Positions 28,882 to 41,067 of a stretch of 41,067 nucleotides of DNA are shown here, in pieces. Made by a program: the position numbers and the translations under genes. How positions within the stretch are numbered: the stretch's first letter is position 1; the number at the start of each line of letters is the position of its first letter. Under the pieces are notes generated by a model. That model made no database searches, had not been told where the DNA came from, and worked only from the letters and a program-made list of their open reading frames with translations. The stretch lies in the IMG/VR virus record IMGVR_UViG_2541047898_000010; one strand, written 5' to 3'. The stretch comes from a virus (lineage: Duplodnaviria > Heunggongvirae > Uroviricota > Caudoviricetes).

Positions 28882-29405
28882 GCAGCCCTCCTGACGCCCT
28901 GCCCGATCGCCATCAATGCCGCTTTGGATACGGTAGTAAACATCCGTCGAGGGCTGATGAACGGTCGCCAAATCAGCAGCATGGAGCCTTTGCTGCTTCC
29001 CTTCTTCTCCAGCCCTGTCGATGGTTCGATAAAATTAATCCGCCCATCAGTGATGATGCGAACTTCGTCAACGCTATCCAGAGCCTTGCTGAACCATCCG
29101 ACTGACATATCCTCTGGCACAAGCATCACTACCGTCTGTCGCTGTTGTATGCACTGCTCAGCGGCTTTTTCCACCCACGGCCTGATATTGCTATACGGTG
29201 GGTTATTCCAGATTGCACCGTGGCTTATCCACTCAGAATTTAGCGCGTCGTCGGCCTCAGTTAACCAGTGAGCGCACAGAGCATTTTTGTCGCTCGCTGC
29301 CGAATCCAGCCAGAATCCAAACTCAATATCCAGTGCATCAAAAAGCCAAAGCGGCGTTTGCCAGCAGTCCTTGTCGTGTGCTGGCGTATTTGATTTGATA
29401 GTCAT
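28878..29405 (-). CDS. DNA N6-adenine methyltransferase (phage Dam-like, NPPY motif)
   Basis: ATG 29403-29405 overlaps ninB stop (ATGA); [12 protein letters not shown]...IWNNPPYSN motif. Confidence 0.75.
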
Positions 29406-29842
29406 GCAGCCCGATCTCCCCATCGCGCTTTCCACTCCAGAGCCAGTCGCGCTTCGTCTGACCACTTAACGCCACGCTCTGTACCGAATGCCTGTATAAG
29501 CTCTAATAGCTCCGCAAATTCGCCTACACGCATCCTGCTGGTTGACTGGCCTATTACCACAAAGCCATTCCCGGCAAGGTTAGGAACAACATCCTGCTGC
29601 TTTAATGCTGCGGTAAACACACACTTCCAGCTTTCTGCATCCAGCCAGCGACCATGCCATTCAACCTGACGAGAGACGTCACCAAGGCAAGCCCAAAGCT
29701 TTCGATTCTGGTCTAAGCTGCGGTTGCGTTCCTGGATGGTCACTACGATTGGTTTGGTTGGGTCTGGAAGAATTTGCTGTATCGCGTGAATAGCGTTTTG
29801 CTGATGAATGGGGCTTCTTAGTTCAAACGTTAGTTTCCTCAT
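29402..29842 (-). CDS. ninB: NinB (Orf) recombination mediator
   Basis: 146 aa; near identical to lambda NinB. Confidence 0.85.
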   Translation of the reverse strand: MRKLTFELRSPIHQQNAIHAIQQILPDPTKPIVVTIQERNRSLDQNRKLWACLGDVSRQVEWHGRWLDAESWKCVFTAALKQQDVVPNLAGNGFVVIGQSTSRMRVGEFAELLELIQAFGTERGVKWSDEARLALEWKARWGDRAA

Positions 29843-33459: not shown

Positions 33460-34812
<1,353 letters not shown>

Positions 34813-34974: not shown

Positions 34975-35005
34975 CGCTCTTAAAAATTAAGCCCTGAAGA
35001 AGGGC
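34975..35005 (+). promoter_or_regulatory. nutL (boxA CGCTCTTA, boxB GCCCTGAAGAAGGGC)
   Basis: Exact lambda-like boxA/boxB read at 34975-34982 and 34991-35005, upstream of N. Confidence 0.8.
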
Positions 35006-35115
35006 AGCATTCAAAGCAGAAAGCTTTGAGTAGCGCGAAATGCAGCTGCAAGACAGCAACCGTGGAGATAAGCATCACGGCGCGTTACTCAAAGCTAACT
35101 GACAGGAGAATCCAG

Positions 35116-35442
35116 ATGGATGCACAAACACGCCGCCGCGAACGTCGCGCAGAGAAACAGGCTCAATGGAAAGCAGCAAATCCCCTGTTGGTTGGGGTAA
35201 GCGCAAAACCAGTTAACCGCCCCATTCTCTCGCTGAATCGCAAACCGAAATCACGAGTAGAAAGCGCACTGAATCCGATAGACCTTACGGTGCTGGCTGA
35301 ATACCACGAACAGATTGAAAGCAACCTGCAACGTATTGAGCGAAAGAATAAGCGCACATGGTACAGAAAGCCACGCAGTGAAATGGGTGTGACTTGTGTT
35401 GGTCGCCAGAAAATGAAATTAGGCAGCAAACCACTTATTTGA
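35116..35442 (+). CDS. N: Antiterminator N (lambda type)
   Basis: 108 aa from ATG 35116 with AGGAG: MDAQTRRRERRAEKQAQWKAANPLLVGVSAKPVNRPILSLNRKPKSRVESALNPIDLTVLAEYH... Confidence 0.85.
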   Translation: MDAQTRRRERRAEKQAQWKAANPLLVGVSAKPVNRPILSLNRKPKSRVESALNPIDLTVLAEYHEQIESNLQRIERKNKRTWYRKPRSEMGVTCVGRQKMKLGSKPLI

Positions 35443-36308: not shown

Positions 36309-36333
36309 GCCCTCCAGTGTGAGGGCTTTTTTA
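36309..36333 (+). terminator. Intrinsic terminator in the PL operon
   Basis: gccctc-cagtgt-gagggc followed by tttttt; a second weaker hairpin at about 36341-36365. Confidence 0.5.
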
Positions 36334-36398
36334 TATGCATACCAATAACGCTTCACTTGAGGCGTTTTCGTTATGCAATCAAATATAAGGAGTTACCC

Positions 36399-36745: not shown

Positions 36746-36916
36746 ATGTCACTTGCAACCACAGTGAAGGAGAGCAAGTTACAGAGACGCATGTACACGC
36801 AGAAAGCTCTCTGGTATCGCCATAATGGCGACCGCGAAGGAATGCGGGTATGCCTTAATTTGTCCCGAGTCGAAGTATTAAATCAGCGTTATTTCCTTGG
36901 GCCGTGTCCATTCTGA
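36746..36916 (+). CDS. Hypothetical small protein before erf (56 codons)
   Basis: ATG 36746 preceded by AAGGAGA; MSLATTVKESKLQRRMYTQKALWYRHNGDREGMRVCLNLSRVEVLNQRYFLGPCPF. Confidence 0.4.
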   Translation: MSLATTVKESKLQRRMYTQKALWYRHNGDREGMRVCLNLSRVEVLNQRYFLGPCPF

Positions 36917-36926
36917 GAACAATCAT

Positions 36927-37532
36927 ATGAGCAAAGAATTTTACGCAAGACTGGCAGCTATTCAGGAGAATCTGAACGCGCCAAAGAATCAGTACAACTC
37001 ATTCGGTAAATATAAATACAGAAGCTGCGAAGATATTCTTGAAGGCGTTAAGCCGTTACTGAATGGTCTGTTTTTATCAATCAGCGATGAAGTTGTGTTG
37101 ATTGGTGATCGGTATTACGTGAAAGCCACGGCAACTATTACCGATGGCGAAAACAGCCATACGGCAACCGCTCTTGCACGAGAGGAAGAAAGCAAGAAAG
37201 GAATGGATTCTGCACAAGTTACGGGAGCTACAAGCTCTTATGCACGCAAGTATTGCCTCAATGGTTTGTTCGGCATTGATGATGCGAAAGATGCAGATAC
37301 AGACGAGCATAAACATCAGCAGAACGCAGCAGCAAAGCAATCAAAACCATCACCTACACCTGAACAGGTTCTAAAAGCATTCACTGACGCAGCAATGCAG
37401 AAAAACACCGTAGAAGAGCTTAAACAGGCGTTCGCCAAAGCGTGGAAGATGCTCGAAGGCACACCTGAGCAGCACAAAGCGCAGGACGTTTACAACATCA
37501 GACGAGACGAATTAGAAGGAGCTGCTGCTTAA
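36927..37532 (+). CDS. erf: Erf single-strand annealing recombinase
   Basis: 201 aa from ATG 36927: MSKEFYARLAAIQENLNAPKNQYNSFGKYKYRSCEDILEGVKPLL... resembles P22 Erf. Confidence 0.85.
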   Translation: MSKEFYARLAAIQENLNAPKNQYNSFGKYKYRSCEDILEGVKPLLNGLFLSISDEVVLIGDRYYVKATATITDGENSHTATALAREEESKKGMDSAQVTGATSSYARKYCLNGLFGIDDAKDADTDEHKHQQNAAAKQSKPSPTPEQVLKAFTDAAMQKNTVEELKQAFAKAWKMLEGTPEQHKAQDVYNIRRDELEGAAA

Positions 37533-37938: not shown

Positions 37939-38232
37939 ATGCCAGCGCCTTTGTATGGTGCGGATGACCCGCGCCGCTGTTCCGGCAATTCCGTATCGGA
38001 GGTGCTGGATAAATTCAGAAAAAACTACGATCGAATAATGTCTCTACCGCAGGAAACGAAAGAGGAAAAGGAATTTCGCCACTGTATATGGCTTGCAGAG
38101 AAAGAAGAACGCGAGCGAATTTACCAGACATCAATCCGACCATTCCGCAAAGCCACATATACCCACTTCCCTGAAATTGACCCGCGCCTGCGTAATTACC
38201 GCTCACGCTATGGCGCTATCAGTAATGACTGA
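37939..38232 (+). CDS. abc2: Abc2-like anti-RecBCD protein
   Basis: 97 aa [56 protein letters not shown]... resembles P22 Abc2. Confidence 0.65.
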
Positions 38233-38407: not shown

Positions 38408-38853
38408 AACAAATGTCACTAATTGAGATGGATGGTTTTCTGAAAGGTAAATGCATCCCACGAGATTTAAAGGTTAACGAAACAAACGCTGAATATCTGG
38501 TGCGTAAGTTCGGTGAGCTTGAATCAAAACTGGAAACGGCGTTGCGGGAGTGTCGTTCTGCTGGAATCACGATTGATAACCTTGAGGCTAAATGCGCGAA
38601 GATGGCTGCAGAAAATACCTCGCTTAAGCAATCTGAGAAGGAATTTAATGACTTTTGTCGTGAGGAGTTTAGCGAATGGGAAGATGATGTTACTGAAACC
38701 CCAGCCACCGATGCTTTTCTGGCTGAAGTACGGGCGCAGGGCGTGGAGATGGCTATGGAGCATATGCGGTCGAGCGGTTCGTTAACATTTGGAGATTGCT
38801 ACATATCACTTAACGAGTTCGCCGCCCAGCTTCGCAAAGGAGGCAACCAGTGA
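38404..38853 (+). CDS. Hypothetical protein
   Basis: 149 aa; ATGA overlap with upstream gene. Confidence 0.45.
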
Positions 38854-39293
38854 GCAAGATTGACTATCAGGCACTGCGTGACAAGGCAGAGAAAGCAACG
38901 TGTGGCGTGTGGTCGCTCGAATATGGAGAGGAGAGATTTGATGCTGGTGATGCGCTAATTCATCGTGAAGTTGTTGGATATCTTCCCATTTGCAGAATTG
39001 AAGGAGCGCATCCTGAAAGCGGTTTCGATGAAGATTTCCAAATGGAACAGCAGGCCAATGCTGAATTCATCGCCGCAGCCAATCCAGCTACCGTCTTGGC
39101 GCTGCTGGGCGAGCTGGAAACAGCAAAAAAGCGCATAGCAGAACTGGAAGAGCGGGAAATACTGCTCCCGGAACGTAGCAGCATGCTTCATCGAACAGAT
39201 TTTCACGATGATTACCAAACGGTAATGGCATACAAAGTTTCTGAAGTCATCGATGCAATCCGCGCTACTGGCATTCGCATCAAAGGAGAGTGA
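38850..39293 (+). CDS. Ead/Ea22-like protein
   Basis: 147 aa; ...NPATVLALLGELETAKKRIAELE... typical of Ea22-like proteins. Confidence 0.5.
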   Translation: MSKIDYQALRDKAEKATCGVWSLEYGEERFDAGDALIHREVVGYLPICRIEGAHPESGFDEDFQMEQQANAEFIAAANPATVLALLGELETAKKRIAELEEREILLPERSSMLHRTDFHDDYQTVMAYKVSEVIDAIRATGIRIKGE

Positions 39294-39294
39294 G

Positions 39295-39486
39295 ATGAAC
39301 GGGCAAATATCAATTGTTCGACCGGGAGCATGTGACGATCGCGAGATACGACTGATTATTCGTCTGGCGATGGGGAAAACAATAACAGCTCTCATTACTC
39401 CAGAAAATCTCGCATTAGCGTTAACAGGAAAGTCAGACCTGCCAGTAGAGCTAAAGCTGCGAAATGTTGAGATTAAGGTGAAATAG
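39295..39486 (+). CDS. Hypothetical small protein
   Basis: ATG 39295 preceded by AAAGGAGAG; 63 aa. Confidence 0.4.
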   Translation: MNGQISIVRPGACDDREIRLIIRLAMGKTITALITPENLALALTGKSDLPVELKLRNVEIKVK

Positions 39487-39488
39487 CT

Positions 39489-40157
39489 ATGACCACTATT
39501 ACCAAAGAACGTATCGAATTATTCATTAAAAATCCGCTTGATAACGGACTTACTCGTGGCGAACAAATGGAACTGGCACGAATTGCACTGGCATCACTGG
39601 AACGCGAACTGATTCGCCACGAGCATGCCAAATGGTCTGACTCCACATTTGGCTGCGTTGGCCCCATTGGTCCGCTGAAACATCTCTCAAAAGAGGCACT
39701 GGAAGCCGCAGCCGAACCAGACGATCTTAGCGAGTGGGCTGATATGCAGTTTCTGTTGTGGGATGCACAGCGCCGTGCTGGCATCAGCGATGCTGAAATT
39801 ACCGCTGCTATGGAAGATAAATTGAAGATCAACATGGAGCGCCAGTGGCCTGAGCCAAAAGATGGTGAGCCTCGCTTGCACATTAAAGAACCCGGCAACT
39901 ATCCGGTAACTCCGGATGGTTGGATAAGCTGTAGTGAGCGAATGCCAGAAATGGGAGAGCGACAATGCTATGTGTTAGCAGCTGACTTTAAAAACAACTA
40001 CCCACCAAACATCCCCAACACTCAGGTCGGCGTATATGGCGACTGGTTTAATGATGGCAATCCAACTTGGGATGACGGTGATGGCGAAGACCTGTATCTC
40101 AAAGAGGTAACCCACTGGATGCCTCTACCAGAACCGCCTCGATTAAAGGAGCTATAA
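39489..40157 (+). CDS. DUF551-type protein (Eaa-like)
   Basis: 222 aa; C-terminal VTHWMPLPEPP signature. Confidence 0.55.
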   Translation: MTTITKERIELFIKNPLDNGLTRGEQMELARIALASLERELIRHEHAKWSDSTFGCVGPIGPLKHLSKEALEAAAEPDDLSEWADMQFLLWDAQRRAGISDAEITAAMEDKLKINMERQWPEPKDGEPRLHIKEPGNYPVTPDGWISCSERMPEMGERQCYVLAADFKNNYPPNIPNTQVGVYGDWFNDGNPTWDDGDGEDLYLKEVTHWMPLPEPPRLKEL

Positions 40158-40271
40158 TAGTGAACTATTATATCTATTTGTATTAAAAGAGTTTTTATAA
40201 AATAAATCTTCCAAAGCATGTAAAAACACTGTTAATCTTAACGTGTGTGAAACGTGAAGAGAGGTGTTGAA

Positions 40272-40553
40272 ATGAGCATTCATGATTTGTGTGAAGATCA
40301 AGAGCAATGGGCTATGCAGACCCTTATGGGATCAGGAGTTCTTGCAAGGTGCAGAATCCATAACGATGTAATTTTAGACAGCGGAAATGATGCTTCTTCT
40401 GCTTATAAATTAGGAACTTACCTATATCAAAAAGATAATAGCTGCAACTTATTCAATACTCTTACTGAAGCCCGCGACGCAATAAAGGATGCATATGAAT
40501 CGTATTGTGGGATTGATGATTGCCCACAATGCTCAAAATACATTGACGATTAA
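40272..40553 (+). CDS. AT-rich moron protein with C-terminal CPQC motif
   Basis: ATG 40272 preceded by GAAGAGAGG; AT-rich upstream leader; terminator downstream. Confidence 0.45.
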   Translation: MSIHDLCEDQEQWAMQTLMGSGVLARCRIHNDVILDSGNDASSAYKLGTYLYQKDNSCNLFNTLTEARDAIKDAYESYCGIDDCPQCSKYIDD

Positions 40554-40573
40554 TAATATGAACAAGTAACTAT

Positions 40574-40599
40574 CCTCGCACTCGCGGGGATTTCTTTTA
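40574..40599 (+). terminator. Intrinsic terminator after moron gene
   Basis: cctcgcactcgcgggg followed by atttctttt. Confidence 0.5.
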
Positions 40600-40641
40600 T
40601 CTGAACTCGCTACGGCGGGTTTTGTTTTATGGAGATGATAA

Positions 40642-40809
40642 ATGCACTTTCGAGTCACAGGTGAATGGAATGGAGAGCCATTCAACAGAGTTATCGAAGC
40701 AGAGAACATCAATGACTGCTATGACCACTGGATGCTATGGGCGCAGATAGCACATGCAGACATAACCAATATTCGAATTGAAGAACTGAAAGAACACCAA
40801 GCCGCCTGA
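40642..40809 (+). CDS. Possible small protein upstream of xis (55 codons)
   Basis: ATG preceded by GGAG: MHFRVTGEWNGEPFNRVIEAENINDCYDHWMLWAQIAHADITNIRIEELKEHQAA. Confidence 0.35.
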   Translation: MHFRVTGEWNGEPFNRVIEAENINDCYDHWMLWAQIAHADITNIRIEELKEHQAA

Positions 40810-40822
40810 TGGCGGTTTTTTA
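40798..40822 (+). terminator. Intrinsic terminator
   Basis: gccgcc-tgat-ggcgg followed by ttttttta. Confidence 0.5.
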
Positions 40823-40866
40823 TTACCTGATTTGCAGGTTCGATTCCCTATTCGGAGATAGCACTC

Positions 40867-41067
40867 ATGCAACACGAACTACAGCCTGATTCACTGGTTG
40901 ATTTGAAATTCATCATGGCCGATACTGGCTTCGGTAAAACCTTCATCTATGACCGGATTAAGTCCGGCGACCTGCCAAAAGCCAAAGTTATCCACGGGCG
41001 AGCAAGATGGTTATATCGTGACCATTGTGAATTCAAAAATAAGCTCTTAAGCCGCGCCAATGGGTAA
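40867..41067 (+). CDS. xis: Excisionase / recombination directionality factor (AlpA/TorI-like)
   Basis: 66 aa MQHELQPDSLVDLKFIMADTGFGKTFIYDRIKSGDLPKAKVIHGRARWLYRDH...; last gene, on same strand as int. Confidence 0.8.
   Translation: MQHELQPDSLVDLKFIMADTGFGKTFIYDRIKSGDLPKAKVIHGRARWLYRDHCEFKNKLLSRANG

Follow-up and report, generated by a model that had tools for sequence, protein, structure and literature searches.

An ea8.5-family gene in an exchangeable slot of a lambdoid prophage, upstream of terminator-like hairpins shared with lambda

Introduction

Does a small gene of foreign composition near the xis end of a lambdoid prophage, with an AT-rich leader in front of it and a strong hairpin behind it, form an expression unit of its own? 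This question is raised by IMG/VR virus record IMGVR_UViG_2541047898_000010, a 41,067-nucleotide stretch of DNA (hereafter the window) in which a leader, a 93-codon open reading frame (ORF) and a hairpin follow one another between positions 40158 and 40641. The initial annotation of this locus had described it as a self-contained moron, that is, as a promoter-gene-terminator unit. The explanation that we favor instead, and to which we assign a probability of roughly 0.78 as a whole, is that the ORF is a lambdoid ea8.5 gene of the pL operon, that the hairpins downstream are elements of the phage backbone, that the gene is exchangeable cargo, and that its product would act as a modulator.

Results

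The ORF is a member of the ea8.5 family

The AT-rich leader (114 nucleotides, 40158-40271), the 93-codon ORF with a good ribosome-binding site (AGAGGTG, 5 nucleotides before the ATG), and a CPQC motif near the C-terminus of its product (residues 84-87) are all present as the initial annotation had described them. Homology searches, one of the checks it had proposed, identified the gene. The product matched Pfam PF20735 (Lambda_ea8_5, “Bacteriophage lambda ea8.5-related domain”) over profile positions 1-90 of 90, with 58.7 bits (E = 9e-16) against a gathering score of 27 bits, and it matched phrog_6325 over its full length (E = 6e-57). Comparison with the PDB revealed 100% identity to residues 9-101 of entry 2M7A, covering all 93 residues of the window protein. 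This entry is ECO111_1119 of E. coli O111:H-, a homologue of lambda Ea8.5 whose fold is a hybrid of homeodomain and zinc finger. Lambda Ea8.5 itself, which also has 93 amino acids, is 40.9% identical to the window protein. An identical protein, WP_000022062.1, is named “Ea8.5 family phage-derived protein” in recent PGAP annotation. The gene thus belongs to a family that is already known: it is in Pfam, it is named by PGAP, and this exact protein has a nuclear magnetic resonance (NMR) structure.

The two profile matches and the identity to a solved protein indicate that the ORF is real beyond chance, and they point to ea8.5 of an E. coli prophage of the lambdoid type, encoding a small predicted zinc-binding protein with a homeodomain-like helical fold. 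Because the sequences are identical over 93 residues, the fold and the zinc site should be those of 2M7A. In an alignment of 68 family representatives, C27, H30, C84 and C87 were the sole invariant columns, which argues that the CPQC motif is the second half of a Cys-His-Cys-Cys zinc site common to the family.

A word-indexed protein search returned near-identical sequences only, and the family became visible only when 1.84 billion representatives were searched exhaustively with HMMER, which yielded 89 family clusters at E < 1e-3, nearly all of 85-100 amino acids. A scan of genome contigs gave a spurious 19-residue match and nothing else. Among 50,697 phage records, the ea8.5 allele of the window was absent both from a distant DNA search and from tblastn; lambda's own allele was the only family member detected there by tblastn (21 records). 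Roughly 90 complete E. coli genomes carry the window allele, and O111:H- 11128 and AR_0058 are examples of lysogens that have it. Neither NCBIfam nor PADLOC gave a match for Ea8.5, for the product of orf55 downstream, or for the dATP/dGTP pyrophosphohydrolase-DUF551 fusion encoded upstream.

The hairpin downstream of ea8.5 is shared with lambda and with phages that lack the gene

The strong hairpin terminator noted 3' of the ORF in the initial annotation was confirmed at 40572-40601: the hairpin, followed by TTCTTTTATC, folds at -12.1 kcal/mol and is more stable than every one of 200 shuffles (z = -4.06). Five terminator-like sites were found in 1.7 kb, as compared to 1.3 expected. Three of the hairpins in the window are the same in sequence as the predicted lambda terminators t3, t4 and t5 (PMC4195576, Table 4), and DNA identity to lambda across 40507-40824 is 90%. 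The t4 and t5 hairpins, orf55 and the ea8.5 family identity had all been missed. Of the two genes that had been given as flanking the ORF, the DUF551 fusion does adjoin it upstream; xis, on the other hand, is not the immediate neighbor downstream, as orf55 lies in between (Table 1). The t5 hairpin forms the right end of the ea8.5-orf55 block, and homology to prophages with other xis/int modules stops at 40824-40829.

When positions 40100-40660 were compared by megablast with the 50,697 phage records, 312 matches were obtained, each spanning only about 40562-40660. They covered t3, t4 and the start of orf55, while the leader and the ORF were covered by none of the 312. A similar picture emerged from complete E. 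coli genomes. Of 5,426 such genomes, 3,346 have a match somewhere in 39894-40830, but at least 80% of this stretch is present in only 83, and partial matches typically run over 40567-40825. The joint t3-t4-orf55-t5 (40567-40830) is very widely shared: lambda, Sf6, mEp213 and Stx phages have it, as does a sizable fraction of the complete E. coli genomes. Genes are swapped upstream of t3, and orf55 itself is also replaced in Sf6 and HK633.

Since the t3-t4-orf55-t5 block, or t3 at its start, follows unrelated genes in Sf6, in mEp213 and in most of the E. coli prophages with this block, t3 is unlikely to be ea8.5's own terminator, contrary to what had been proposed. It appears to be a conserved backbone element in front of xis/int that is not private to ea8.5.

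The leader and the gene form an exchangeable cassette

The guanine plus cytosine (GC) content is 27% in the leader and 38% in the ea8.5 ORF, compared with 49% in the upstream gene and 45% in orf55 and xis; the compositional contrast with the neighbors that had been reported initially is therefore real. The ea8.5-specific DNA begins at 40141, right after a shared CCGCCTC (40134-40140), and extends to about 40566, right before a shared TAAC(A/T)ATCCTCGC.

Other cargoes occupy the same slot upstream of t3 in related elements. Sf6 has a Lar-like gene there, mEp213 an ST104-ORF7-like gene, and E. coli AHB4 an ASCH-domain gene overlapping the DUF551 gene at the latter's end. In HK633, one unrelated gene takes the place of both ea8.5 and orf55. 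E. coli M6 retains only an 11-codon ASCH remnant between the DUF551 gene and t3-orf55. In this strain (L024, 1700-1790) the ASCH-domain gene is deleted between two copies of AAAGGTGAATA, an example of short-repeat-mediated loss of cargo at the swap site. The ea8.5-orf55 block, for its part, is joined to three integration modules: ybhC/lambda-type, sbcB and dsdC/TorI-type.

The leader and ORF (40141-40566) thus form an exchangeable cassette of foreign composition, and they represent one among several cargoes known from this slot. Judging from the alleles compared, the history of the slot appears to be one of replacement rather than simple insertion.

The cassette lies in an N-antiterminated operon and its leader gives no promoter match better than chance

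The lambda nutL boxB sequence and the N gene lie about 5.3 kb upstream of ea8.5 on the same strand, and between 36897 and 40157 no two neighboring genes are more than 23 nucleotides apart. The gene is located in the exo-xis section of a pL operon under N antitermination, within an E. coli prophage of the lambdoid type. With nutL and N upstream on the same strand in a tightly packed pL operon, read-through transcription is the default expectation for ea8.5.

Promoter prediction, which had been suggested as a check on an independently expressed gene, gave no leader promoter better than chance. A consensus scan of 39400-41067 found no sigma-70-like promoters where 3.2 were expected. In a weight-matrix scan, the top leader candidate was TTAAAG-17-TATTAT, with the -10 at 40166-40171 and a score of 8.5 bits; for comparison, the window's likely pR scored 13.1 bits and its likely pL 10.5 bits. 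A score of 8.5 bits was reached by 45% of dinucleotide shuffles of the same 142 nucleotides. We detected nothing that would argue for a leader promoter beyond AT-richness.

Three further candidate elements in the leader were considered and rejected. An RNA element was not supported by RNA folding (z = 0.05), and Rfam gave only sub-threshold chance matches. A promoter conserved across homologous leaders was not supported by their alignment, which contained no common -35/-10 pair. Conservation of an AT-rich palindrome that spans the stop codon of the upstream gene (Table 1) was not supported either, as the palindromes of the leaders labeled L016 and L020-L022 were at chance level. In the window itself, 11 of the 12 arm positions of this palindrome pair (P of about 0.002, 500 dinucleotide shuffles of a 50-nucleotide region), and each arm has a -10-like hexamer inside it. 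It could be a protein-binding site or a chance occurrence in AT-rich DNA. An extended -10-like sequence, TGGTACATTC, is shared by the leaders of L020-L022 only, about 45 nucleotides before the start codon (L020, about 2455-2465), and it is not in the window's leader.

Family members in the nin region repeat the layout with a different terminator

Six homologues with 34-38% identity (L007, L016, L017 and L020-L022) are located immediately before NinB, in the nin region of the rightward operon. A DUF551 gene immediately precedes three of them, as it does the ea8.5 gene of the window, so that the DUF551-Ea8.5 pair recurs in both early operons. Five of the six, L007 being the exception, have an AT-rich leader (GC content 0.32-0.37); its length is 113-147 nucleotides in four of these and up to 242 nucleotides in L022, according to the ORF call of our script. 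In the same five, the stop codon is followed after 6-8 nucleotides by a strong terminator that differs from that of the window, GGCCTCTTCGGAGGCC plus a T-run; no such terminator follows the ea8.5-family gene of L007. High-GC homologues lack an AT-rich leader.

For the cassette idea of the initial annotation, no argument is stronger than this recurring layout of leader, gene and terminator. However, the nin region is likewise N-antiterminated and the terminators there are part of the backbone, and no -35/-10 pair is conserved among the homologous leaders.

Other features of the window

The coordinates of all features are collected in Table 1. The xis gene, of the TorI/HK620 HkaC type, has 99% DNA identity with the xis/TorI genes of HK633 and Sf6. 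In the gene upstream of ea8.5, the N-terminal part is a MazZ-like dATP/dGTP pyrophosphohydrolase (PF04447). The DUF551 part is fused in relatives to Ead/Ea22-like or Lar-like N-termini and so behaves as a portable C-terminal domain. At 39268-39296, in otherwise unrelated surroundings, 29 nucleotides match the 3' end of lambda ea22 with 100% identity, which looks like a mosaic boundary sequence.

Further upstream, two tandem terminator-like hairpins (36309-36366) stand in the pL operon, with the genes that follow N on one side and erf on the other, and they are probably the counterpart of the lambda tL2 cluster. A 158-codon ORF (34336-34812), right after the cI-type repressor gene and before pL/nutL, was matched by nothing in Pfam, NCBIfam or PADLOC. 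At this position a related prophage encodes a protein with a BstA C-terminal domain, and by analogy the 158-codon ORF may be a prophage-expressed exclusion gene.

Table 1. Positions of the features discussed, in window coordinates except for the nin-region genes, which are given in the coordinates of their own records.
Feature	Position	Strand	Remarks
cI-type repressor	33779-34411	+	
nutL boxB (GCCCTGAAGAAGGGC)	34991-35005	+	exact lambda sequence; marks N-antiterminated pL operon
N gene	35026-35442	+	Pfam N36, E = 3e-26
Erf	36897-37532	+	
Abc2	37939-38232	+	
Ead/Ea22-like gene	38850-39293	+	
dATP/dGTP pyrophosphohydrolase-DUF551 fusion, upstream neighbor	39489-40157	+	Pfam PF04447, E = 5e-42; PF04448, E = 3e-20
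Left part of cassette	40141-40271	+	last 5 sense codons and stop of upstream gene, then AT-rich untranslated leader; from divergence from ASCH-allele prophages
AT-rich palindrome AGCTATAATAGT-GA-ACTATTATATCT	40150-40175	.	spans upstream (DUF551) stop codon; shuffle test
Shine-Dalgarno AGAGGTG	40260-40266	+	5 nucleotides 5' of ea8.5 ATG; read from sequence
ea8.5-family gene, 93 amino acids	40272-40553	+	stop codon included; ATG 40272, TAA 40551-40553, 93 codons
Terminator-like hairpin and T-tract, lambda predicted t3	40572-40601	+	stem 40572-40591, 8 pairs, 4-nucleotide loop
Second terminator-like hairpin and T-tract, lambda predicted t4	40603-40632	+	hairpin 40603-40622; -11.0 kcal/mol, z = -2.9
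lambda orf55 homologue, 55 amino acids	40642-40809	+	phrog_676, E = 9e-40
Third terminator-like hairpin and T-tract, lambda predicted t5	40799-40828	+	hairpin 40799-40818; -13.0 kcal/mol, z = -3.6
Excisionase, TorI/HK620 HkaC type	40867-41067	+	phrog_66, E = 3e-8; TAA stop at window end
nin-region ea8.5-family gene, L016	5001-5282		
nin-region ea8.5-family gene, L017	5001-5282		
nin-region ea8.5-family gene, L020	2501-2782		
nin-region ea8.5-family gene, L021	2501-2782		
nin-region ea8.5-family gene, L007	4001-4279		

Discussion

By analogy with lambda ea8.5, we propose that, upon induction or infection, N-modified RNA polymerase would start at pL, read through the terminators and in this way transcribe ea8.5 of the window. 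The t3, t4 and t5 hairpins would keep unmodified transcription out of xis/int, and the unstructured A/U-rich leader, together with the good Shine-Dalgarno sequence, would permit independent initiation of translation. In lambda, ea8.5 mRNA rises after infection or induction, in the pL-driven exo-xis region (PMC4195576).

The protein may be a non-essential modulator of the lysis-lysogeny decision that binds a regulatory protein or DNA. This proposal rests on the lambda data. Plasmid-borne lambda ea8.5 strongly represses the cII-dependent promoter paQ, and pI weakly (PMC7093339 citing Los 2008; PMC3824215). The whole exo-xis region impairs lysogenization (PMC3824215), and lambda Ea8.5 was non-essential in a CRISPR interference screen (PMC10695390). 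Its yeast two-hybrid partners are the fourth line of support. A host- or phage-modulating role is plausible from this literature.

Several points weigh against the explanation that we favor. The yeast two-hybrid partners of Ea8.5 (Int, Q, Ren, itself and tail-fiber proteins) were judged promiscuous (PMC3224144), and the structural neighbors of Ea8.5 outside its family are generic helical bundles. A 114-nucleotide AT-rich gap is unusual within an otherwise tightly packed operon, and the leader could hold a weak promoter, as AT-rich DNA often does. The recurring AT-rich leader-gene-terminator layout of the nin homologues also fits autonomous expression.

The alternative most directly opposed to read-through from pL is that a promoter in the leader drives ea8.5 in the repressed prophage, that the transcript stops at t3/t4, and that the protein serves the lysogen, for example by modulating the host. 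We consider this unlikely. In its favor, the contrast in composition is real, the cassette can be exchanged and is lacking in prophages that are homologous otherwise, and the nin homologues (35-38% identity) repeat the layout of AT-rich leader, gene and terminator with a different terminator sequence. A strong terminator stands directly 3' of ea8.5, but it is a backbone element that is present in phages without the gene as well. The -10-like TATTAT (40166-40171) falls in the right arm of the significant palindrome, which could be an operator; the scans, however, gave no consensus promoter and a top match at chance for its composition, and the homologous leaders have no conserved -35/-10 pair, the TGGTACATTC of L020-L022 being missing from the window. 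Up-regulation of the DE3-prophage Ea8.5 in BL21(DE3) under oxidative stress (PMC7791884) would fit expression in a lysogen, but this signal could stem from spontaneous induction, and the lambda homologue is a classical pL early gene. What remains of the moron that was first proposed is therefore a real, conserved accessory gene of foreign composition in an exchangeable position; a self-contained promoter-gene-terminator unit is not supported.

It could be speculated further that the leader is a weak promoter under the control of the palindrome, that Ea8.5 is made in the lysogen as a true moron whose transcript ends at t3/t4, and that the family is a mobile, host-acting cassette directed, for example, against a defense system or at the cell cycle. 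If this were true, the leader-gene-terminator layout that recurs in the nin region would be the signature of a family that moves as a cassette and provides for its own expression; we regard the proposal as decidedly unlikely.

Finally, Ea8.5 might serve in anti-defense or host takeover, for example by inhibiting a protein of host immunity or of the cell cycle, instead of regulating the phage's own decision circuit; we consider this very improbable. In its favor, the gene is small, non-essential, early-expressed and variable, its accessory neighbors include Abc2 (anti-RecBCD) and the MazZ-like dATP/dGTP pyrophosphohydrolase, and exo-xis expression reportedly blocks host replication and synchronizes the cell cycle, with a MinE interaction in two-hybrid screens (PMC8614690; PMC3824215). 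Against it, the cell-cycle effect is reported for the exo-xis region rather than for ea8.5 itself, confidence in the two-hybrid data is low (PMC3224144), Ea8.5 has no match in NCBIfam or in PADLOC, which covers defense systems and not anti-defense proteins, and nothing in our analysis supports the anti-defense role that had been suggested for it.

Returning to an ea8.5 gene read through from pL, our results are of use mainly in correcting the annotation. Both the terminator and the surrounding operon are part of the lambdoid backbone, which is conserved, and the region is better labeled as the exo-xis genes and hairpins ea8.5, t3/t4, orf55 and t5. What Ea8.5 does is a modest question in lambda biology. 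Possibly useful for the design of experiments are the placement of the family before xis or before ninB, the terminator directly 3' of the gene in all enterobacterial members examined except L007, and the frequent position of ea8.5 after a DUF551 gene.

Comparison with known systems

Morons of lambdoid phages, reportedly described by Juhala and colleagues and by Hendrix and colleagues in 2000, with lambda bor and lom and the HK97 morons as examples, resemble the window cassette in their foreign composition, in their exchangeable place between backbone genes and in the intrinsic terminator downstream. In contrast to them, the cassette has no detectable promoter and a terminator that belongs to the backbone, and it lies in an antiterminated early operon rather than in a late or structural region.

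Three Ea8.5 proteins can be compared directly. ECO111_1119 of E. coli O111:H- str. 11128 (PDB 2M7A) is the window protein, residue for residue, although its genomic neighbors may differ from those of the window, the cassette occurring with several xis/int modules. Its structure was reportedly solved by NMR in 2013 by Kwan and colleagues (in Biochemistry 52:3612). PP_3909 of Pseudomonas putida KT2440 (PDB 2M7B) has about 20% identity and comes from a different host clade.

The third is lambda Ea8.5 (29374-29655 of J02459). The two proteins differ at most positions, and the lambda leader is unrelated to that of the window (191 nucleotides and a GC content of 0.39, compared with 114 nucleotides and 0.27). 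The upstream neighbor is Ea22 itself in lambda and the pyrophosphohydrolase-DUF551 fusion in the window, and the TorI-type xis of the window is unlike lambda's. On the other hand, the genes have the same length, a similarly low GC content (0.39 in lambda, 0.38 in the window), C-x2-H and C-x2-C ligands and a place in the pL operon, and lambda ea8.5, like that of the window, occupies the slot after an ead/ea22-type gene and right before t3-t4-orf55-t5-xis.
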